From a virus: a DNA stretch of 64,000 nucleotides. A program made the translations under genes and the position numbers. The DNA lies in the IMG/VR virus record IMGVR_UViG_3300023717_000163, one strand, 5' to 3'. This document shows, piece after piece, positions 3,843 to 58,410 of this stretch. Every line of letters begins with the position of its first letter. Position 1 is the first letter of the stretch. The notes under the pieces are model-generated. The model had not been told where the DNA came from and made no database searches. It was given only the letters and a program-made list of their open reading frames with translations.

Positions 3843-5170
3843 GCTTTAGGCTGGGTTAAAGTGATTGTAGCGGTTTTTGTCACATCTTCGGCAAGCGTCA
3901 GGGTAATAACGCCTTCTTTTGCGGCGTCACCGGCCGAATTATCCAAAGCAGTTACCAATAAAACTTTATCCTGTTTTACAACCTTAAAGCCTTCCGGTTC
4001 TGTATATGCGTAGTCAGACGAAGCGCTTACCGCAAATTGCTTTGTTCCACCGTTAACCGGGTAAGCGATTGTTTTCGGGGTAACTGATATTTCAGGCACA
4101 TAAGCCGAACTGACAATTGCGCCGATAGCTTCCATCTTTTTCGGTAATACGATAAAGTAATGACGGAAGTTAATCAAACTTTCCTGTGTTTGCGGACTTT
4201 TTTCGGCTTCCGAATAATACATTTTAGTCTTGCCCGAAGCCTTAAACATACGTTTTACATAGAAAGCAACCGAAGCCTGATTTGTGCCTTCCAAAGCCGT
4301 TTCGCCGAATTTCTTTTTTACTCCGTTAGTAGTGAATGACGGGCAACTAACATACTCGTAAACTTCAAATCCGTACAGGTTGGCAATCTTACCGGTCGTG
4401 TAATTATAGTATTGCTTTTCAAACTTCTGGTCGCAAAGCAGCAAATCGTTGACGTGATCCGAACACAACACAAGGCGGCGGCCCTCTGTGGGAACTTCCA
4501 TTTTATCGAATTTATCTTTCAATGCAACAATATCCTTTGTTGTAATCCTGCGGCGGCCGTTATCGTTCGCCCCGGTGGTAAGAACTACCGGTGTCAAATC
4601 AGAGTTCTTTTGAGGAGCAAGGGCATGAATTGCTTTCTTGAATTTGTTCACCAAGATGGATTCACCGTGACGTTCTTTGTGGCTTGCCATCTTTTCATAA
4701 GAACAGGCATAAAGTTCATCATCCGTGACACGGGTAGCCTTTGTTTGGTATTTATCCAAACTGATAGCAACGTCGCCATCTTCCAAATCTTGGATAGGAA
4801 TAGGATAAGTTGTATTGTTGATTAAAACGTCAGGATCACCGCCCACGTCGATAAGGTGAATAATATCGTTTTCGGCTTTATCGGAATAGTCGGGAATACC
4901 ATCCAGCCATGTAGCCGTAATTCCGGCACGCAATTTCTTAATTAATTCACCCGTCCAAATTTCCGTATATACACCAGCACAAGCCGAACCATTCGGCAGA
5001 AAGTTGCCCGAAACAATCGACGCACCTACAACGACCGCCGCACCGGCAGAAGCCGGAACGCCAACTGCGACGGCAAGAAAAAGCCCCATCATTGCATTAA
5101 TAAGCAACCGGGAAAAGAGTTTAAATCCTGTTTTCATTTTTACCTGTTTTAAAATTAGTAGTTGGGACAA
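3839..5170 (-). CDS. Putative major capsid protein with a C-terminal Ig-like (Big_2-like) domain
   Basis: 443 aa. Sits between the protease/scaffold gene and the lysis genes. The C-terminal ~80 aa are beta-rich and Ig-like. The Gly/Ala-rich hydrophobic N-terminus is unusual. Confidence 0.5.
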   Translation of the reverse strand: MSQLLILKQVKMKTGFKLFSRLLINAMMGLFLAVAVGVPASAGAAVVVGASIVSGNFLPNGSACAGVYTEIWTGELIKKLRAGITATWLDGIPDYSDKAENDIIHLIDVGGDPDVLINNTTYPIPIQDLEDGDVAISLDKYQTKATRVTDDELYACSYEKMASHKERHGESILVNKFKKAIHALAPQKNSDLTPVVLTTGANDNGRRRITTKDIVALKDKFDKMEVPTEGRRLVLCSDHVNDLLLCDQKFEKQYYNYTTGKIANLYGFEVYEYVSCPSFTTNGVKKKFGETALEGTNQASVAFYVKRMFKASGKTKMYYSEAEKSPQTQESLINFRHYFIVLPKKMEAIGAIVSSAYVPEISVTPKTIAYPVNGGTKQFAVSASSDYAYTEPEGFKVVKQDKVLLVTALDNSAGDAAKEGVITLTLAEDVTKTATITLTQPKA

Positions 5171-32982: not shown

Positions 32983-34302
32983 ATGGCAACTAAAGGATTA
33001 GGAAATGAAACATTGGTGACCTCCATTCTGCGTTCCAATACAGTATTGGTGGAAGTTGGTGGTAGTGTCAGACGCATTACCGTGGAAAACTTCATGAATG
33101 CTATTAATAATGGTGACGAACAAATGTTGAGGCAGGTGGCTTGGGGGATTCCAATCAAACAATCAACCCAAAGTAGCACGAACTATGGTGTGATAGGTAA
33201 TACAGCCGCATGGACAGAATACAAGTTGTATTGTGGCCGTTATCTCGTAACGAATGATGGAAGGGCTGCTAAAATGTCCCCTACCAATAGTGCGGTGTTT
33301 GCTGATGGTACTGCGGTGGATGAAACCAAAGGGCATGTGATGTGGATAGGGCCACGTTTGTATTATCGTGTACAGACTGACAGTGTAAGTGGTGTACCAG
33401 TCTTATGGCTCTCGATGCTACCTATTGGCGGTGAGTTTATTGGTGGGGCAAATGGTGGAATGTATAACTGTATCGGTGCATACAAAGGCTCCATGTCAGG
33501 TAGCGCACTTGTTTCACGTTCAGGAGTTGCACCGGCAGGCAGCAAGACAATCAACGCATTTTGGAATGCTGCACAAGTGAACGGTAAGGAATGGGGACTG
33601 ACCGATTACGATCAGAGAAAGCTTATTATGATGTTGGGGCTGTCCCAGTACGGAGATACCAATATTCAAGCCAAACTTGGTTATGGTGTGGGTGGTAGCT
33701 CCAGTAAAGACTTGTGGGCTGCTGCGGCAGCATTGCAAACTGGCGCAACAAAGAGTCTCGGTGACAATTGGGGCAAAATAGCTATTTCTGTGGTGAATGG
33801 AAGTAATACTGGAGTGGATTGTTCACGGGTGAACATGATGGGTATAGAAGATCCTTATGGGTGGCAGTGGGAATTTCTGCAAGGAGTATTTTGCGGTAGT
33901 TCCAACAATAGTGCTCAAAGTGGAACGGAAATTTTCATTTACAAAGGAAACCGTTTACCGACTACTGCTGAATTAGCTGCGCATCCAAATGGTGAATACA
34001 GACAAGCTACCCGTCAGACAGCTTCCGGTCAAGTGCAGGAAATAATTCTTGGGGAGCATTTTGATATTTTCCCGAAAAAGATTGGTGGAAACAGCACTTC
34101 TTATTGGGCTGATTATTCATGGGCAAACACTACTGGGCAGCTGGTTCTTTGGGGCGGTAATGCGTATGCCGGTGCGTATTGCGGCCTCGCTTATGCGGGC
34201 TCGGATAGCGCTTGGTCGAGCTCGCGTGCGGACTTCGGCTCTCGCCTTGCGTATTTTGGGAATTTAACATTTGTTAGCGGTGCATCTTTGATGGCTGCAT
34301 AA
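32983..34302 (+). CDS. DGR target protein 1 (tail-fibre/receptor-binding candidate) with the C-terminal variable repeat VR1
   Basis: 439 aa. The C-terminus LVLWGGNAYAGAYCGLAYAGSDSAWSSSRADFGSRLA matches the TR 120 bp downstream except at TR adenines. Confidence 0.7.
   Translation: MATKGLGNETLVTSILRSNTVLVEVGGSVRRITVENFMNAINNGDEQMLRQVAWGIPIKQSTQSSTNYGVIGNTAAWTEYKLYCGRYLVTNDGRAAKMSPTNSAVFADGTAVDETKGHVMWIGPRLYYRVQTDSVSGVPVLWLSMLPIGGEFIGGANGGMYNCIGAYKGSMSGSALVSRSGVAPAGSKTINAFWNAAQVNGKEWGLTDYDQRKLIMMLGLSQYGDTNIQAKLGYGVGGSSSKDLWAAAAALQTGATKSLGDNWGKIAISVVNGSNTGVDCSRVNMMGIEDPYGWQWEFLQGVFCGSSNNSAQSGTEIFIYKGNRLPTTAELAAHPNGEYRQATRQTASGQVQEIILGEHFDIFPKKIGGNSTSYWADYSWANTTGQLVLWGGNAYAGAYCGLAYAGSDSAWSSSRADFGSRLAYFGNLTFVSGASLMAA
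34139..34246 (+). repeat. DGR variable repeat VR1
   Basis: About 108-bp match to the TR. Of the 15 differences, 14 fall at TR adenine positions. Confidence 0.7.
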
Positions 34303-34818: not shown

Positions 34819-36362
34819 GTGAATATTGGAAGAAGTGATATTGATTGGAAGAGTCTATCGCATAATGAAATTGATAGAATTATAGCGGAAAGGATAGAGG
34901 CTGACAATAAACGGATAGAAGCAAACGGTGGAAAGAAATCTAAAAGAGCCGGGTATATTCTTGAACGTATAGCAGAGATAAATAATTTACGTGAAGCGGA
35001 CAAAGAAGCACAAGATGGGAAGGTTAAGAAAAACCGCTTTATCAGGCGGCATAATCTACACCCGGAAGAAGACCTCCGAGCTTTGCAGTTGATGATCCTG
35101 ACATTGGATTTTCCGGCACCGGATTATAGCGTAATGAGAGTAAAAAGTGATGCAGGAAAGGTTCGAGATATTGTCAAACAGAAATATTTCCCGTGGCGTA
35201 TATTGCACCATGCAATTATGAGGGTGATTGAAGAAGATGTTTATAGAAATTTGATTTATGATACAAGTGCGTGTATCAAGGGAAAGGGATTACATTTTGG
35301 AGTAAGGAGAATGAAACGTTTTCTTCACCGGTACCCGGAATACAAATGGTTCGTAAAGACTGATTTCAAAAAGTTCTATCAAAGTATTCTTCATGAGCTT
35401 ATTGTTGCTGCATTGAGAAGGAAATTCAAAGATGAACGATTTATTAAATTGATCGAGATAGCTGTTTTATCGTATGACAGCGGAACAGAGTTAGTTGACG
35501 TATTGGAGAATGAAGTTGAACGGAAGAAGAGGTGTTCCGATTGGAGCATTTACAAGCCAACCTATCGGGAATTTTGCGGCAAGCCGGATAGATCATACAA
35601 TGAAGGAGAAATATCGTGTCAAATGCCTGCATAGATATTGCGATGATAATGTTATGCTGGCTCGTTCTAAGGCCGAAGCGTTGTTTCTTATTCGTGCGTA
35701 TGAACGGGAAAGTGCAAAAGTTGGGTTGGTAGTTAAAGCAAACAGTTGTATTGCTCCGATAGGAACAGAAACAAAAAATGGGAACAAAAAGCATAGAAAG
35801 CGAAAACGTAGTAAGAGGAAGAAGGATTAACTTTTTGGGCTATTGCTTCACGAAAGATAATGTTCGGATGCGTAAAAATATGAAAAAGAACTTTGCCCGA
35901 AAGGTGAAACGAATAAAAAGCCGGAAACGTAACCGCGAGATACGAGCTTCATACTGGGGCTGGTGTAAGTGGGGAGATTGTAAGAATTTATGGAGAACAA
36001 TAACAAATAATGATATGAGTTTTGCAGATAAAGGTATCAAACAGAGTGGTAGAACAAAGGACGGAAAGAAGTTCTTCGATGTAAAAGAGACAAGATTGAT
36101 GGATATTCTCAATGTCCCTATAACAGTGGTGGACTTTGAAACGAATGTGAAGACAAAGCAAGGTGAAGGTAGATATTGTGTTCTTTTTGAACAGAACGGA
36201 CAACGTAGCAAATTCATAACGAACTGTTACAATCTGAAAGATGTGTTGGATCAGGCTCGCGAAGCGGAGAATAACGGTCAGAAGATTTTTCCAGTGGAAA
36301 ATGTGATTGTCAAGCGGCGTTCGTTAGGTGACGGGAAGAGTGCTTATTATTTTGAAGAATAA
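34819..36362 (+). CDS. DGR reverse transcriptase, interrupted by two apparent frameshifts (three ORF-track pieces)
   Basis: GTG start. Motif A VKTDFKKFYQSILHELI is in frame 1. Motifs B and C GVPIGAFTSQ and RYCDDNVMLA are in frame 2 (35495..35830). INFLGYCF is in frame 3 (35778..36362). The shifts fall at purine and A runs near 35515-35535 and 35770-35790. Confidence 0.7.
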
Positions 36363-44871: not shown

Positions 44872-45124
44872 TATTTATTTCTTTAGAGTGGCAATTTCTA
44901 TCAAGTATCTCAATGCACTGTTTAATCCCAGTATCAAATCCTTCTTTATAGTCTTTGGTATGCTCACCTAAAACATATATAGTCATTGACAGCCAAAATA
45001 GAAGTATGCCAACGGATTTATACCAGCATGGTAAAGATATAGAAAAGGGTTTTAAGGTGATAGAGAAATCACCGATCCACAGAAGACCGGCAATGAGCAT
45101 GAGTAAATATAAGACTTTCATCAT
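44849..45124 (-). CDS. Small membrane protein
   Basis: 91 aa with two or three hydrophobic helices. Confidence 0.4.
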   Translation of the reverse strand: MMKVLYLLMLIAGLLWIGDFSITLKPFSISLPCWYKSVGILLFWLSMTIYVLGEHTKDYKEGFDTGIKQCIEILDRNCHSKEINNDETVQN

Positions 45125-45611
45125 TTATCATTGTTAAGTTCAACATATTTGCCTTGTAAAGAGCAGTTCCTTAAAATTTCGGCATTTTCCCGGCCAAATG
45201 CAATAAGAACACTACCGCAACCGGGGCTGTCCCCACGTGTTCCATCGGGACGGAAGAATTTTATTCGATTTCTCAAAAACATCATACCAGTTGCTTTCGT
45301 GAAGATGATGTCTTGAAACTTATTGCTGTCACACCGGTTAAAAAGTAGTGCTATACCGTTGCCGTGTTCTGCCAATTTCTCTACAAACTGCCATATAAGC
45401 GGTTTGGAGTACGGAGGGTTAAGCCAAATTCGCCCCCCCAATTTTGTACAAGACCATTGTCCTGCTTGTTGTACATGATTTTTGCAGTAGGCCAAAGAGG
45501 GTGCATGGGAGCACATGGATCAAGGTCAAATTCACCTAATGCTTCAATGATTTCTCGTGGTGTGTACCATTCATCGGAAGCATTTGCAGATCGTTCAAAA
45601 GATGTATTCAT
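45121..45611 (-). CDS. DNA N6-adenine methyltransferase (phage Dam, DEWYTP...NPPY type), frame broken at a G7/C7 homopolymer
   Basis: The N-terminal part (45381..45611) carries DEWYTPREIIEALGEFDLDP. The C-terminal part (45121..45516) carries WLNPPYS. The frames join only if the tract at 45433-45439 has 8 rather than 7 residues. Confidence 0.7.
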
Positions 45612-45845: not shown

Positions 45846-46745
45846 TTACAACATTTTAAAGTATTCCTTGCATAAAAATCCTTTTCTTGGTGAAAAGTCT
45901 TTGAAGTCGCAACTCATGTATATTTCCTTCCTATCAGCCCAATGTGCCATATCTTTCTGCCACTGTGGAATAATTTGGTGTGGATTGTTCAGATCACGAA
46001 AGGGTTGACAATGTGGAAGAAAACGGCGGCTTTTAGATTTCCAGTAGTTGACGCGCGCAAACGATTCTTTAAAGTCCATAAGGATGCAATACAAGAAATA
46101 TTCCCCTTTATATCCATACTTGTCTATTAAAGCGGAAGCACGTTCAACTTCTGCAATCTGTCCCGGTGTATCGCATCCAAAGCGAATACGTTTAATCCAT
46201 TTTACTTTTGCAAGTAGCCGAGCGATTTCATCCGTGATTAAACGGGCATCCAGTCCTTGATTAAAATCCACTTTGATACCCAGTTTGATGATTTTCTCTA
46301 TTTGCTGCAAGCCATAGTTTGAGGCCAGTATATTATTATCCATAAGGATAGCTTTTTTCCGTCCGGCTGTTATTTCCTCAATATCCATATAAGGTGAGAT
46401 TTTTCCTTCTTTTTTAGGAACAACACACCATTTACACCGATTGGGACACCCACGTGTCAGAAATCCATAGGATAAATTGGAGTCAATATTGTAGATCGAG
46501 TAATCAGGTTGAAGACGATCAACCTCAACTGGAAGAACTTTTTCAATATCATATCCGGTACCACCTTTTTCTATTTGGTTAGTATTGATATAATAGTTAT
46601 AGTCGGGTGTGAAAGTGAAAACTTTAGCTGCATATACTTTATCATATTCACATAGTGGATTATACCATTCCACTTGATCGCCTCTTGCTTTGTGGTAAGC
46701 ACTGATCTTCATAAGTGCTAAATTGGGGGGGGGAATTGCTATCAA
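45846..46745 (-). CDS. Radical SAM protein
   Basis: GCPNRCKWC (CxxxCxxC). A G9/C9 tract lies 16-24 nt upstream of the ATG at 46709, or inside the gene if the TTG at 46745 is the start. Confidence 0.55.
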   Translation of the reverse strand: MIAIPPPNLALMKISAYHKARGDQVEWYNPLCEYDKVYAAKVFTFTPDYNYYINTNQIEKGGTGYDIEKVLPVEVDRLQPDYSIYNIDSNLSYGFLTRGCPNRCKWCVVPKKEGKISPYMDIEEITAGRKKAILMDNNILASNYGLQQIEKIIKLGIKVDFNQGLDARLITDEIARLLAKVKWIKRIRFGCDTPGQIAEVERASALIDKYGYKGEYFLYCILMDFKESFARVNYWKSKSRRFLPHCQPFRDLNNPHQIIPQWQKDMAHWADRKEIYMSCDFKDFSPRKGFLCKEYFKML

Positions 46746-46766
46746 CGGCTAAAATTCCAATATTCA

Positions 46767-47114
46767 TTATTCTTCAAATTTAGGTTTTGGCATCCATGCT
46801 ATCGGTTCCCATGACGGAGGTATGCTGCTCATTGAAGAGTAAATTGGGTTACCTTTGTACGTGTCATAGATATAACCATCCATGCAGAACCATACATTGT
46901 TGCTATATGTACCGTTAAAAATCGCACCATGTTTACATAGAATGATGATGTCTTCATTTTCATCCGGTAACCGTTCTTTCACTGATACCCACGGAGGTTG
47001 TTTTGTCTGCCATCTGGCTCCTTCTTTGAATCCTATTCTAAAACAAGTTATTTTATCCCAGTCAGGATGTACGCCTCCAATTTCATTTACGGCTTCTTCT
47101 AATGTCTGTTTCAT
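46767..47114 (-). CDS. DUF551-like phage protein
   Basis: PWVSVKERLPDENEDIIILCKHG matches the DUF551 signature. Confidence 0.5.
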   Translation of the reverse strand: MKQTLEEAVNEIGGVHPDWDKITCFRIGFKEGARWQTKQPPWVSVKERLPDENEDIIILCKHGAIFNGTYSNNVWFCMDGYIYDTYKGNPIYSSMSSIPPSWEPIAWMPKPKFEE

Positions 47115-47116
47115 AT

Positions 47117-47785
47117 CTATTTATCAAATAAATTAGTTTGAACCAACCTTCCTCTCTCTGTTTTTATCTCCCCAAAACATTCCCGGTGAAAACGTTCTTC
47201 TTGTGCTTCAAAGTATTCTTCATCTATTTCAGTTGCATAGAAATCGAATCCAAGTCCATAAGCAGCTATTCTGCTGCTTCCTGAACCTAAATGACTATCA
47301 AAAATTTTGTCTCCCTCTTTGGCGTTTTTTCTTAATATTTCAGCATATAATTTCACTGGCTTCTGACAACGATGGATATTTCCACCTCGTTCTCCAATTG
47401 TACACCGGTTTAGAGTTATGATCCGAAGAGCCTTGTCAAAACTACTCCATGCCAATTCACCGTCAGACATAGTTAATCCATGTTGTCCTTTATCCCAAAC
47501 AATCCAACCCATTTTGGGAGGAAGATAGGTAGTAAAGTAGTTACCACCAAAAATTATTTGATTCTTCGATACCCTGAATAGTTCCTCAAAATATTTCTTT
47601 CCGGGGGGGGACTTATCCCAATCCTTTCTTTTATATTGTTTAAAGCCTAAATGCTTCGGCATCCCACCTTTGTGCATTATGTCTATGCCATACTGGGGAT
47701 CGACTATCGCTAAATCAAAGAACTTATCAGGAATCCCCTTCATGTATTCCATACAGTCCATGTTATATACTTCGCTTATCGGCAT
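47117..47785 (-). CDS. DNA methyltransferase, beta-class (motif IV before motif I); N6A or N4C
   Basis: DLAIVDPQY upstream of FDSHLGSGSS. An in-frame G8 tract encodes SPPGK. Confidence 0.6.
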   Translation of the reverse strand: MPISEVYNMDCMEYMKGIPDKFFDLAIVDPQYGIDIMHKGGMPKHLGFKQYKRKDWDKSPPGKKYFEELFRVSKNQIIFGGNYFTTYLPPKMGWIVWDKGQHGLTMSDGELAWSSFDKALRIITLNRCTIGERGGNIHRCQKPVKLYAEILRKNAKEGDKIFDSHLGSGSSRIAAYGLGFDFYATEIDEEYFEAQEERFHRECFGEIKTERGRLVQTNLFDK

Positions 47786-47799
47786 TATTTATATCCTTT

Positions 47800-48033
47800 C
47801 TATTCTGTTATTATTAATTTCATGTGCATTCTTGAAATCATTTTCTCTTCTTCTTTCAACTTATGATAATAATCTATAGCTTCATCTTTAGTATTGAATG
47901 TACCAACACACGAATAATGCCAAGATCCGAAAGGATCTTTGAGGATATACAAGTTGTATGAACCTAAGACCGTTTTCGCCAAATAGTAAGGATCTCGTAT
48001 CATAATGTTCATTCCATTTTTATTTACTCGCAT
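47800..48033 (-). CDS. Hypothetical protein
   Basis: 77-aa ORF. Confidence 0.4.
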   Translation of the reverse strand: MRVNKNGMNIMIRDPYYLAKTVLGSYNLYILKDPFGSWHYSCVGTFNTKDEAIDYYHKLKEEEKMISRMHMKLIITE

Positions 48034-48875
48034 AGTCCATGAAACAGACTCATGCAGGCATATCCACCTTCCGGCTCGAACATATCAGGGGTATGTTCTT
48101 TAACGTACTCCAAAACTTCCTCTACATAAGGATATTGTTTGTTTTTACAGAATCTTTGAGGTATGTATAATGGAGGAAAGAAGGAATGTCCTACGCTTTT
48201 CTCTGCTTGAATTAGGCGTTGGCACATTTTAGGATCATTTTTGGCTATGAGTTCGATTTCTTTGTGCCGACACATGATACACGGGAAACATCCAACACGT
48301 GAGAATCCACGATAATACAATGGATTCGGTTTCTGCCCTGCATCCAGTATGCAATCTATAACTTGCTGTGCACTCCATTTGAAGATAGGTCTTAGAACAG
48401 AAGCGTCATATTGGGAACACCATTCTTTGACATCCTTACTTCGGTAGTTTTCAGTTCTTCCTTTCTTATTAGGTTGAAAATACGATTTGAAGTACATACA
48501 TTCCTCTTCCATTGCCGCACGTGCTGTACTTTCTCCGGCTCTGATACCTTGTATGATAATGCAGCTTTCTTTCAAAGAAAGTACATAATCAATCATTGGC
48601 TTCATTTTTAGTTCACTGGTACAAAATCGTGCATTCGTGGAAGGAAATCTTTTCTTATGAGCTGCCAAAGACACAAAATCATATTTTGATTTGAGAGTTA
48701 TAAGTCTTACACCCATTTGCAGACAAACATCATTCACATGTTTATATGTGTCAGGGTGTTCCCAACCGGTGTCACAAAACACAGCGGTTAAATTCCCCCC
48801 CCCATATTGTTTGAAGGCTTGGATTAAACATGCTTGTGAATCCTTACCACCTGAAAAACTTACTAATATTTTCAT
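48024..48875 (-). CDS. PP-loop ATP pyrophosphatase, PAPS-reductase/QueC superfamily
   Basis: SFSGGKDS P-loop and a C-terminal GCFPC...C Cys cluster. An in-frame C9 tract encodes YGGGN. Confidence 0.6.
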   Translation of the reverse strand: MKILVSFSGGKDSQACLIQAFKQYGGGNLTAVFCDTGWEHPDTYKHVNDVCLQMGVRLITLKSKYDFVSLAAHKKRFPSTNARFCTSELKMKPMIDYVLSLKESCIIIQGIRAGESTARAAMEEECMYFKSYFQPNKKGRTENYRSKDVKEWCSQYDASVLRPIFKWSAQQVIDCILDAGQKPNPLYYRGFSRVGCFPCIMCRHKEIELIAKNDPKMCQRLIQAEKSVGHSFFPPLYIPQRFCKNKQYPYVEEVLEYVKEHTPDMFEPEGGYACMSLFHGLCE

Positions 48876-48877
48876 TT

Positions 48878-49207
48878 TTATGCCATTTCAATTTTTACAT
48901 ATTCATTTTTATTAATCCCGGCACTACCTTTGGGAGAATACACTAATCGGCCTCCATTATCCAATATCTTTTGTACATCTTTCATAGCTTGGTATGCTTG
49001 GGTATAGTCTTTGTATTCTTGGTGGCCTATTGGATATTTGCAATATCTTCTACCACCGTCAGGCATGATGCTGATACCGAATACTGTTTCATAAGTTTTT
49101 CGGTTGAAATTCTGTTGAGTCCTTACTTTCATTTTTTTTGATACATTTTCCCAGTTTAAGTATAAATACACATTCGTTATCCGGTGCTCCCCAATTGGTG
49201 TTACCAA
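48878..49207 (-). CDS. Hypothetical protein
   Basis: 109-aa ORF. Its start may be the internal ATG, since it overlaps the next gene by 119 nt. Confidence 0.35.
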   Translation of the reverse strand: MVTPIGEHRITNVYLYLNWENVSKKMKVRTQQNFNRKTYETVFGISIMPDGGRRYCKYPIGHQEYKDYTQAYQAMKDVQKILDNGGRLVYSPKGSAGINKNEYVKIEMA

Positions 49208-51989: not shown

Positions 51990-53095
51990 TTATAATTTAG
52001 ATAACCAATATTTCCATACTCGTGAGGCTACTTGTGCCATCATAACGGGTGGTACACTCATTCCACAGATATAATGTGGGGATTGGTTGAGGAAATGATA
52101 ATCTTGTGGAAATGTGGATATATTACATACTTCTGACCGTGATAAATATATAGGCTGCTTAAAAGGAATAATTGAGTCTGCATGAGTTGTTAGGGTGTAG
52201 CTTACTTTGTTCTCATATAGATATTGTTGATTAAAAAAGCCTCGTTTTCCAGTTTGTTTCTTATAGGCCTCTGCCAAAGCAATATCTCCTGCCACTCTCT
52301 GCTCAAATAACTTTCTCATTTTTACGCCAATAGGCTTTCCCTTGTAATCCGCATATTCCCCATAATATATTTCCGATTCATTAAATTCCATGTCGATGTA
52401 TGGCTCAACATTGAAGAGGTCTGAAACTTTTAGGAAATGGGCTCCCAAATCATGTCTGATACATATAAAGAATACACGTTCTCTTTTTTGAGGTACTCCC
52501 ATTTTAGAAGCATCAAGAAGAAAATGCTGACAGTAATAACCAGCTTCCTCAAAGCCTTTGTATATACGTCTGACATAATCAATCGCATTCCCTAAAAGAA
52601 GTCCTTTTACATTTTCAGCAATAACGACTTTAGGTTTTAAGCGTTTGGCAAGTGCAATAAAATCAAAAAAGAGCGTGTCTAAAACTTGTGTCTTTTGACC
52701 TTCCTTGAATTTCTTTTCTTTACCCCACGCATCTTCACGTAATCCCGACATGCTAAATGTACTGCAAGGTGGTGATCCGTCCAATATATCTAAATTGTAC
52801 AGTTCTTCGGGAAGATTATTCCTTTTCACTAAATCACGAATATCTTCCAAATAACTATACTGGGGATGATGGTTTGTTTCATAGCATTTCATCATTCGTG
52901 GATCAATCTCATTACAGCCAATAACATCGTAACCTGCTATTTTGTAACCCATAGTAGAGCCACCGCCACATGCAAAACAAGAAAATACCTTTCCCTTATC
53001 TTTAGTAAAAACAGCATCTTCTAAAGACCAGCGATAAGGATAGAGATGTTGTGTATGGGGGGGGTAATTACATCTTTCATCATTCCACCTCCCAT
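51990..53095 (-). CDS. DNA cytosine-5 methyltransferase whose N-terminus (motif I) is out of frame at a G8 tract
   Basis: PPCSTFSMSG and ENVKGLL lie in the annotated ORF. Motif I FSCFACGGG is upstream of the annotated ATG, in frame but with no start codon. The ATGs at about 53084-53095 join this frame only if the G8 tract (53057-53064) becomes G9. Confidence 0.7.
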
Positions 53096-53616: not shown

Positions 53617-53892
53617 TTATAATGATATTGTTTGGGTGTATTTCAATTCTCCGGTATATCCACGTGCTTTCAATTCTGCGATAAGTTCCCGTGGAGAAAA
53701 TTTTGCCAATTCAGGATTGGAATATATTTTCTTCAAATTCCCCCCCCCCGGAGTTTTCTTACGGTTTCTGGCATAAACATTACCGCACTCTTTACAATAT
53801 GTCTGCAATCCATCTTCGGTTGAAGCATTTTTCCAAAACTCACTGACCGGAAGTTCCCGGCCACATTTGCTACATTTTTTTAATTTTTCCAT
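53617..53892 (-). CDS. Zinc-ribbon protein
   Basis: CSKCGRE...CKECGN. An in-frame C10 tract encodes PGGGN. Confidence 0.45.
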   Translation of the reverse strand: MEKLKKCSKCGRELPVSEFWKNASTEDGLQTYCKECGNVYARNRKKTPGGGNLKKIYSNPELAKFSPRELIAELKARGYTGELKYTQTISL

Positions 53893-57509: not shown

Positions 57510-57812
57510 TCATAACGGTTTTAAGCCATATCGGGCAGAACCGACAAATGGCTGTGGGTTAGTCCTTATGTTTGCTTTGTGTATATCATCTGTACGATGA
57601 TTGAATAATCGGGGTAATCCCGTTATTTTGTCATATACAACCAGTTCAGACGATACATAACAAATAAAGCCTTTCAGTCGCTCTTTCAACCATGCGTTCT
57701 GATAGGCTCTGCGTTCACGATACTCTTGGTAGCTCATTCCTTTGGGACGAGCTGTGAGAAGGGGAGTGTAATTTCTCGCCCCCCCCGATTTAGATTTACT
57801 CTTTCCCATCAA
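57510..57812 (-). CDS. Hypothetical basic protein
   Basis: 100-aa ORF. An in-frame G8 tract encodes SKSGGARN. Confidence 0.45.
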   Translation of the reverse strand: MMGKSKSKSGGARNYTPLLTARPKGMSYQEYRERRAYQNAWLKERLKGFICYVSSELVVYDKITGLPRLFNHRTDDIHKANIRTNPQPFVGSARYGLKPL

Positions 57813-58410
57813 TCAAATTTTTATATTGTTTTTCTGAAACGAACTTGTCGCAGTTCTTATACCAAGTGCCATCATTTATTTTGTATGGGTTGCTCGTTTC
57901 ATCCACTTCATTCATAATACCGACTACCGCATTTTCTTTGTTGTTATCATCCCATACGATAACAATATCGCCGACAGTCGGGATATATTCAGGCTGTAAC
58001 TTCTCAAAATTGAAGGAGTAATGTTTTTCTTCCTTCATGGCGGCAAGCATCTTTGCCTTTTCCTCTTCTGTAGCTTTACGGAATCCCTTCATGCCTCCGA
58101 TACCAGCTTCGGGTGTGAGTTTTACAAAAACTCTGTCACCTTCATCGTTGGAAGGAACATAAGCGACAAGGCCGAAAGGTACTTTTATTGCTGGTAAAAA
58201 AGGAAGCGGCCTTTCTTCTCTAATTTCAGAGAGAATCATCATGCTGCCCCCTCCGCGATTTGGATTGATAATTACGTCACCGGGGATGAATGTCTCACCT
58301 TCAAACTCAAATTTACCCCCCCCCATAACTTTTTGGGTAGATTGCATACTTTCTTCTTTCACGATTTTTACCATGTGTCCTTCGGGCACTTCAACTGTTA
58401 CTGTTCTCAT
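57796..58410 (-). CDS. Hypothetical protein
   Basis: 204-aa ORF. An in-frame G9 tract encodes MGGGK. Confidence 0.5.
   Translation of the reverse strand: MRTVTVEVPEGHMVKIVKEESMQSTQKVMGGGKFEFEGETFIPGDVIINPNRGGGSMMILSEIREERPLPFLPAIKVPFGLVAYVPSNDEGDRVFVKLTPEAGIGGMKGFRKATEEEKAKMLAAMKEEKHYSFNFEKLQPEYIPTVGDIVIVWDDNNKENAVVGIMNEVDETSNPYKINDGTWYKNCDKFVSEKQYKNLIDGKE

Follow-up and report, generated by a model that had tools for sequence, protein, structure and literature searches.

A candidate phase-variable poly-G run in the Dam-family methyltransferase gene of a LoVEphage-like phage, one of eight G/C runs in a single early gene module

The window analyzed here, the whole stretch of 64,000 nucleotides (nt) of the IMG/VR virus record IMGVR_UViG_3300023717_000163, carries on its minus strand a predicted gene for a Dam-family DNA methyltransferase whose reading frame is broken at a run of G's. 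This run, which we consider a candidate site of phase variation, the gene in which it lies, and the peptide read from the gene in its present form are as follows (aa, amino acids; ON and OFF denote in-frame and out-of-frame alleles):

45121..45611, minus strand: predicted Dam-family (PF05869) orphan N6-adenine DNA methyltransferase gene; the 491-nt form in the window is the OFF allele (ON allele 492 nt, 163 aa)
45433..45439, minus strand: poly-G run, G7 on the coding strand, codons 58-60; G8 reads TGG GGG GGG = W-G-G; G6-G10 in relatives
45381..45611, minus strand: product of the OFF state, a 76-aa open reading frame (ORF); N-terminal 60 aa plus 16 out-of-frame residues, without the NPPY motif

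The plus strand reads C7 at positions 45433-45439, i.e., G7 on the coding minus strand. One minus-strand ORF, from 45611 to 45381, starts MNTSFERSANASDEWYTPREIIEALGEFDLDP...NWGG and then leaves the frame, and another, from 45516 to 45121 in a different frame, reads ...GGRIWLNPPYS...NNDK to its stop. With one added G, the two become a single 492-nt ORF of 163 aa, reading NWGGRIWLNPPYS. As in contingency loci, the length of a repeat inside the ORF sets the frame, G8 being in frame and G7 giving 76 aa. An original prediction, made from the letters of the sequence, held that the DEWYTP...DLDP and WLNPPYS parts of the protein lie in different frames and join at 45433-45439, and the intact 163-aa ORF obtained with G8 bears this out. 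Its rendering of the G7 form as "WGGEFGLTL-stop" is correct in that the frame is left after WGG and has to be amended at its end; the G7 frame reads WGGEFGLTLRTPNRLYGSL-stop, with the stop 16 codons past GG and not directly after GLTL.

The assignment to the Dam-type methyltransferases likewise holds for the repaired protein, which matches the Pfam model PF05869 (Dam) with 55.7 bits (cutoff, 28.1) over residues 10-129 of 163, unbroken across the junction, and PHROG 111 (DNA methyltransferase) with an E value of 2.6e-41. The catalytic (D/N)PPY motif is present in it as LNPPYS at residues 64-69 and is absent from the G7 product. A profile scan of the neighbors detected no Pfam domain, and hence no nuclease domain, in the small ORFs flanking the gene; since these ORFs lack a recognizable domain, we regard the predicted methylase as an orphan without a partner nuclease. 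A sequence search of PDB with the repaired protein returned no match at E values up to 1 and so provided neither a structural anchor nor a clue to specificity. Among the GenBank relatives compared, the intact 492-nt coding sequence is annotated in OY725593 and OY731444 only; the gene is annotated as two fragments in MW660583, OY731433, and PV4-TP1, and as the N-terminal part only in BI-TP1.

Identity of the window is 98.9% with the Bacteroides phage BI-TP1 and 97-98% with LoVEphage records and the Phocaeicola phage PV4-TP1 (compared over 40-60 kb). By these comparisons it appears to be a LoVEphage-like temperate phage of Bacteroides/Phocaeicola, and its 64 kb would fit inside one temperate phage genome of ~71.5 kb (checked over 40-60 kb). 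BI-TP1 has B. intestinalis as its source host and was sequenced independently from induced particles. LoVEphage ranks among the most prevalent phages of the human gut and lysogenizes several Bacteroides and Phocaeicola species. Phages of the LoVEphage group are found in ~8% of gut viromes, and LoVEphage species have been induced from B. thetaiotaomicron, P. dorei, and P. vulgatus (Dahlman et al., PMC12629997). The minus strand of the window holds the genes of the 40- to 62-kb region, an early module encoding an RtcB ligase, methyltransferases, radical-SAM proteins, a PAPS-reductase-like protein, a resolvase, HU, RecT, and an exonuclease. Scans for tRNAs (ARAGORN) and Rfam families were empty throughout the window, so that no RNA element accounts for the site of the G run. 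Public annotations of OY731433 (L003 13454-13559) and MW660583 (L002 21688-21890) give a barrnap "5S ribosomal RNA" and an intron-containing "tRNA-His/Undet"; in view of the empty ARAGORN and Rfam scans of the window, either these annotations are doubtful or the segments are absent from the window.

Among relatives, the Dam run differs in length from one sequence to the next. All run lengths were read from assembled contigs or genomes, ~140 related contigs in total, a number that is an upper bound on independent samples, as IMG/VR and ENA may share contigs. At the level of GenBank sequences, the run has 7 G's in the window and in BI-TP1, 6 in MW660583, 9 in OY731433 and PV4-TP1, and 8 in OY725593 and OY731444. 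The IMG/VR contigs, retrieved with the repaired protein, range from G7 to G10 and most often have G8; 11 interrupted GGGGAGGG alleles come in addition. A separate scan of ENA metagenome assemblies yielded 80 contigs, with G6 in 2, G7 in 9, G8 in 36, G9 in 24, G10 in 5, and an interrupted run in 4; G6 or G9 is present on ENA contigs of 12-99x coverage, and assemblies of cultured phages likewise include out-of-frame lengths. Contigs of Bacteroides/Phocaeicola genomes have G7, G8, and G9. Across all sources, then, the run takes lengths from G6 to G10, and the commonest, G8, is the in-frame one. The original prediction had set against phase variation the case of a fixed G7 without heterogeneity, which is ruled out by this spread over GenBank, IMG/VR, ENA, and Bacteroides genomes.

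Length differences persist when the compared sequences are otherwise the same. Clustering by a 600-nt flank (≤2 differences) gave, in each cluster with at least four members and uninterrupted runs, 2-4 run lengths, and the window's own cluster comprises G7, G7, G8, and G9. Five groups of contigs share 2-kb flanks that are 100% identical and nonetheless have 2-4 lengths each, one of these groups including G7, G8, G9, and G10. At most levels of flank divergence, which span 1-2 to >20 differences per 2 kb, a fraction of ~0.7-0.8 of the pairs differ in run length (bins, 0.56-0.83, with 0.56 in the 11-20 bin); run length is thus already randomized at the smallest divergence that can be measured. 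Gains and losses of tract length have recurred among near-identical genomes, a pattern typical of contingency loci.

Two further observations concern the run itself. The 3' ends of two IMG/VR contigs (L080 and L081) fall exactly inside it (...TTGGGGGGGC and ...TTGGGGGGGG), and these assembly breaks could reflect mixed lengths in the samples concerned. In Bacteroides acidifaciens DSM 15896, an element bounded by inverted repeats, AGACTGTCCGAGAACTC ... GAGTTCTCGGACGGTCT, breaks the orthologous Dam gene exactly within the poly-G run, with G5 on its left and G9 on its right (NZ_JANJZR010000142, ~4273-4375 [L090]; NZ_JANJZR010000009, 1-90 [L088]). Because both contigs terminate in the element, it is repeated in that genome; an insertion sequence that jumped into the run and perhaps duplicated a G-run target is the probable explanation.

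The OFF alleles are otherwise intact. All 23 distinct out-of-frame alleles (G6, G7, G9, and G10) give an uninterrupted ORF of 160-164 aa once the run is set to 8. The part of the gene downstream of the run, taken in the G8 frame, appears to be under strong purifying selection, the ratio of nonsynonymous to synonymous divergence (dN/dS) relative to the window allele being 0.03-0.14 with dS up to 1.5; such preservation of OFF alleles is again what is seen in contingency loci. The run is kept across alleles with dS values of 0.6-1.5. More distant Dam homologs (65-81% amino acid identity) have no run and encode WFGR or WAGR at the site, and GGG makes up only 16.8% of the glycine codons in the window. 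Given the absence of the run from distant homologs and the minority status of GGG, the homopolymer reflects a specific codon choice of this lineage. The interrupted GGGGAGGG allele encodes the same W-G-G-R and is locked in frame.

The original prediction dealt with a single run, and the Dam run turns out to be one of eight in one gene module. The other seven run-bearing genes are the following:

45846..46767, minus strand: radical-SAM gene (PHROG 9298); ATG at 46767 and body in different frames owing to C9 on the coding strand; 922 nt versus 918 nt when intact in relatives; OFF relative to that ATG
47117..47785, minus strand: predicted N4/N6 DNA methyltransferase (PF01555); in-frame C8 at 47603-47610, ON; 7-10 in relatives
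48024..48875, minus strand: PAPS-reductase/PP-loop gene (PF01507); in-frame G9 at 48795-48803, ON; 7-12 in relatives
51990..53095, minus strand: predicted C5-cytosine DNA methyltransferase (PF00145); C8 (53057-53064) separates the frame of the ATG at 53095 (MGGGMMKDVITPP) from that of the body, OFF; C9 gives an intact 1107-nt coding sequence; 7-10 in relatives
53617..53892, minus strand: 91-aa zinc-ribbon protein with PHROG matches to endonuclease VII, HNH, and Lar-like proteins; in-frame G10 at 53740-53749, ON; 8-11 in relatives, plus interrupted forms
57510..57812, minus strand: 100-aa ORF, function unassigned; G8 at 57779-57786 near codon 10, ON; 7-11 in relatives
57796..58410, minus strand: 204-aa ORF, function unassigned; G9 at 58316-58324, ~codon 30, ON; 8-11 in relatives

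All eight G/C runs of at least 7 bases in the window lie between 45,433 and 58,324, among the early genes, and the first 45 kb, which hold the structural module, have no G/C run longer than 6 bases. Seven runs of at least 8 bases are observed versus 0.56 expected from 100 first-order Markov simulations (maximum, 3), and four of at least 9 bases versus 0.15 expected from such simulations. Hence the tracts are over-represented relative to base composition, as in contingency loci, and all lie within 13 kb. Each sits in the first 55% of a minus-strand gene, and the genes concerned encode three DNA methyltransferases, the PAPS-reductase-like protein, the radical-SAM protein, the zinc-ribbon protein with Lar-like matches, and two proteins without an assigned function. 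Among relatives, length varies for 7/8 runs, that of the Dam gene included and that of the radical-SAM gene excepted. In the window, the Dam, radical-SAM, and C5 methyltransferase genes are OFF and the other five are ON; the combination of states differs in each complete genome examined, save for the matching pair OY725593 and OY731444.

The radical-SAM run, G9 at 46725-46733 on the plus strand, is unique to the window. In all 27 IMG/VR contigs that carry the site and in the GenBank relatives it reads GGGGA or GGGGG, one or two of them with one base more, and BI-TP1 is shorter by exactly 4; the G9 form looks newly expanded. In the N4/N6 methyltransferase gene, the 9-base form present in OY725593 and OY731444 splits the gene in their annotation. 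BI-TP1 has a divergent allele of this gene in which the same Pro-Pro is written as CCA CCT, without a run. The gene is mosaic among phages that are otherwise 99% identical, with BI-TP1 (L001 6180-6848) and three IMG/VR contigs carrying a divergent allele of equal length that lacks the homopolymer, a distribution suggesting that alleles have been swapped here through recombination. Directly upstream of an ATG, at 49132-49139 of the window, there is a T8 run (A8 on the coding strand) with 7-9 bases in relatives; it is possibly a noncoding site of variable length that could influence how the following gene is translated or transcribed.

The sequence AATTT begins within 0-2 nt after four of the eight long runs on the G-rich strand (45433, 48795, 53740, and 58316), against a background probability of 0.0075 per position, and follows none of the 27 runs of 5-6 G's; the radical-SAM run (46725) is flanked as AAATT-G9-AATTG. 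This motif could reflect a constraint on the peptide, a common origin, or a cis element. The shared AATTT had suggested that the runs were insertions of a small cassette, an idea that we set aside: at two sites, homologs without the run have the same length and residues (WFGR/WAGR in Dam and Pro-Pro as CCA CCT in the N4/N6 gene), which points to codon choice rather than insertion.

We propose that the gene encodes a working N6-adenine methyltransferase and that the Trp-Gly-Gly of codons 58-60, written as T-GGGGGGGG, forms a homopolymer to which slipped-strand mispairing during replication would add, and from which it would remove, G's. G8 would be the ON state, with the full 163-aa enzyme, and G6, G7, G9, and G10 would be OFF states yielding a truncated peptide without the NPPY catalytic motif; the window would then represent a G7 OFF allele. 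Seven more genes of the early region may use the same device, giving a phage population with many ON/OFF combinations of DNA-modification genes. Methylation would shield the phage from classical restriction and expose it to methylation-dependent systems, so that mixed progeny might be safer, a form of bet-hedging. With regard to the Dam run itself, the G6-G10 spread in relatives, the identical flanks with different lengths, and the intact, selected OFF alleles support the idea of a phase-variation candidate, and on this sequence evidence the run is very probably a genuine hypermutable ON/OFF site. When the mechanism of slippage and adaptive bet-hedging are included, the statement as a whole goes, step by step, from fairly probable to evenly balanced. 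Fast reversible switching within one lineage would be part of it, and the benefit would lie in bet-hedging between hosts. This last appears to be the most economical reading; the same restriction trade-off has been demonstrated for the A run of T2 agt (PMC12633550). The shared G(n)-AATTT context could mark a cis element promoting slippage. Still more tentatively, and with a little less than an even chance in our estimation, at least seven independently slipping poly-G/C runs, in three DNA methyltransferase genes, the PAPS-reductase-like gene, and other early genes, might act as a combinatorial switchboard. Each burst would then comprise a large set of epigenetic and anti-restriction states (up to 2^7 or more), with which the phage could pass between hosts whose restriction and methylation-dependent defenses conflict.

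Some observations weigh against this proposal. Assemblies can miscount homopolymers, and some of the contigs are of low coverage. The window and BI-TP1 agree at 5/6 comparable runs and the two AUSP isolates agree at 7/7; from this agreement of close pairs, lengths are stable over short spans, and the rate of change could be modest. Several of the other runs have an out-of-frame length as their commonest (G9 in the N4/N6 gene and G10 in the PAPS gene), a state to which dispensable genes drifting neutrally would come as well. Phase variation in Bacteroides, moreover, is known as invertase-based and not repeat-based, and a literature search on slipped-strand and homopolymeric tracts in Bacteroides gave no counterexample.

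These points lead to the first of the alternatives, namely, that the runs are mutational hot spots without an adaptive role, chance homopolymers in dispensable accessory genes that drift neutrally between ON and OFF. Accessory phage genes are often dispensable; the PAPS run is in frame in 7/21 contigs, the one-third expected without selection; and it shares with the N4/N6 run a commonest length that is out of frame. Chance homopolymers are, however, hard to reconcile with seven runs of at least 8 bases where 0.56 are expected, gathered in 13 kb of a single functional module and none of them beyond the first 55% of its gene, or with the fact that they are made of minority GGG/CCC codons where homologs use other codons for the same residues. 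The Dam run, furthermore, persists at dS values of 0.6-1.5 while the ORF has a dN/dS of 0.03-0.14, and its commonest length is the in-frame one. We therefore consider neutral drift unlikely.

Homopolymers are the classic site of indel miscalls, and as the two IMG/VR contigs ending within the Dam run show, assemblers struggle there. The true run in the window might accordingly be G8, with the gene simply intact and the G7 an assembly or sequencing error, as the original prediction had allowed. A private error of the window can be rejected, as G7 is common to it and BI-TP1, its nearest relative, with its independent sequence from induced particles. Lengths of 6-10 are found in ~140 assemblies from several pipelines, including the contigs of 12-99x coverage, and the polymorphism among relatives would stand even were the call in the window wrong. 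Several controls bear on the length calls in general. The G5/C5 runs of the same region show substitutions only, with no change in length; the interrupted GGGGAGGG Dam allele never varies in length; and A/T runs of 7-8 bases have occasional indels only. OY725593 and OY731444, which are independently assembled cultured isolates of one phage and differ only in the variable region of a diversity-generating retroelement (DGR), are identical at all seven shared runs (8, 9, 10, 9, 11, 8, and 9), and run lengths are reproducible on the strength of this match. Between the window and BI-TP1, net indels over 14 kb are confined to two of the runs. From these controls, random miscounting cannot account for the pattern, and a miscalled G8 in the window is very unlikely. 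The pair of isolates is also of interest for another reason: over 27.8 kb they are identical apart from 12 substitutions and 3 gapped bases, which are grouped toward the 3' end of a tail-fiber gene that adjoins a reverse-transcriptase gene (L005 1360-1433 vs L006), and these differences look like the work of an active DGR. The window has a matching tail-fiber/reverse-transcriptase pair (~32983-34302 and 34819-35634), in which the Pfam match of the reverse transcriptase is weak (21.8 bits).

Recoding offers a different way of making the enzyme, in which programmed ribosomal frameshifting or RNA-polymerase slippage would act on out-of-frame alleles and the length of the DNA run would not be a switch. 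Long homopolymers can cause transcriptional slippage, most genomes have out-of-frame lengths at several runs, and the AATTT downstream of four runs could be a cis element. A programmed site, though, with its conserved slippery sequence and fixed pair of out-of-frame ORFs, would hold a fixed length and offset; the Dam run ranges from 6 to 10 with both +1 and -1 offsets (G6, G7, G9, and G10), and its commonest length is in frame. The locked GGGGAGGG allele, moreover, encodes the same W-G-G-R in frame, and as in-frame and locked alleles exist, no recoding is needed for the protein. Recoding in place of a DNA-level switch thus strikes us as highly improbable, and leaky slippage may occur on top of switching at the DNA level. 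Finally, an ordinary pseudogene, inactivated once and decaying, is scarcely credible: the frame is indeed broken here, and four GenBank relatives have the gene annotated as split or truncated, but the 23/23 distinct OFF alleles have no other lesion, the sequence downstream of the run appears strongly constrained, in-frame alleles are the most common, and OFF alleles of different lengths recur on identical backgrounds.

A reversible ON/OFF switch at the Dam run would resemble several known systems. In bacteria, phase variation of methyltransferases through repeats is a classical phenomenon. The phasevarions known from Haemophilus, Neisseria, and Helicobacter involve chromosomal methylase genes (Type III mod or Type I hsd) that belong to restriction-modification systems and regulate host genes. 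The likeness lies in a DNA methyltransferase ORF whose 5' half contains a simple-sequence repeat, with ON/OFF methylation predicted here; the difference is that the present gene would encode a small orphan phage enzyme of the Dam family, which is not part of a Type III or Type I system, has no adjoining nuclease, and is flanked by ORFs without a Pfam domain. With phage orphan Dam proteins (PF05869), it shares the above-threshold profile match, the NPPY motif, and a size of ~160 aa; it differs from the homologs at 65-81% identity in having a homopolymer at the site where those have WFGR/WAGR. The hypermutable poly-G tracts of Campylobacter phages are said to lie mainly in receptor-binding or structural genes, the phages being lytic and their host devoid of mismatch repair; here, the runs are confined to early genes for DNA modification and anti-restriction, and the phage is a temperate one of Bacteroidota. 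Shared with those phages, judging by the title of Sorensen et al. 2021 (Cell Rep 35:109214; cited in PMC12823448 and PMC10877375), are the poly-G tracts in phage genes and the phenotypic diversity that length changes would generate in a phage population.

The closest functional parallel is offered by the contingency loci of phages T2 and T4, such as the A run of T2 agt, which toggles DNA modification, two Type IV restriction systems being traded off against each other (Gomez, Barrick and Waters 2025, bioRxiv, PMC12633550); by switching agt, the phage balances systems that attack modified and unmodified DNA (PMC12633550). Common to both is a mononucleotide run in a phage DNA-modification gene, and the same trade-off logic may apply here. 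The T-even runs are mostly of A/T, 6-9 bases long, and at about background density in an AT-rich genome, with mutant frequencies of ~1e-4 to 1e-3 in reads (PMC12633550), whereas the runs described here are of G/C, 7-12 bases long, far above expectation, and gathered in one module, with the alternative lengths being the consensus of whole populations. The full text of the two main LoVEphage papers has no mention of homopolymers, polyG, frameshifts, or phase variation, and a literature search yielded no report of repeat-based switching in Bacteroides or its phages. The mechanism is of a known kind; what sets it apart is the number and concentration of the runs, their restriction to the module with the phage's DNA methyltransferases, and the prevalence of the phage. 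If true, it would to our knowledge be the first repeat-based contingency system in Bacteroidota, where known phase variation proceeds via invertases.

If the proposal is true, reversible homopolymer switches in methyltransferase and other DNA-modification genes would be a concrete, testable mechanism for the host breadth of these phages, and would explain strain-level heterogeneity in virome data. Annotation pipelines now report the run-bearing genes as split or truncated, and if homopolymers in assemblies of gut phages are "polished," a genuine biological signal would be lost. A switchable orphan methylase could also change the epigenome of the host in lysogens.

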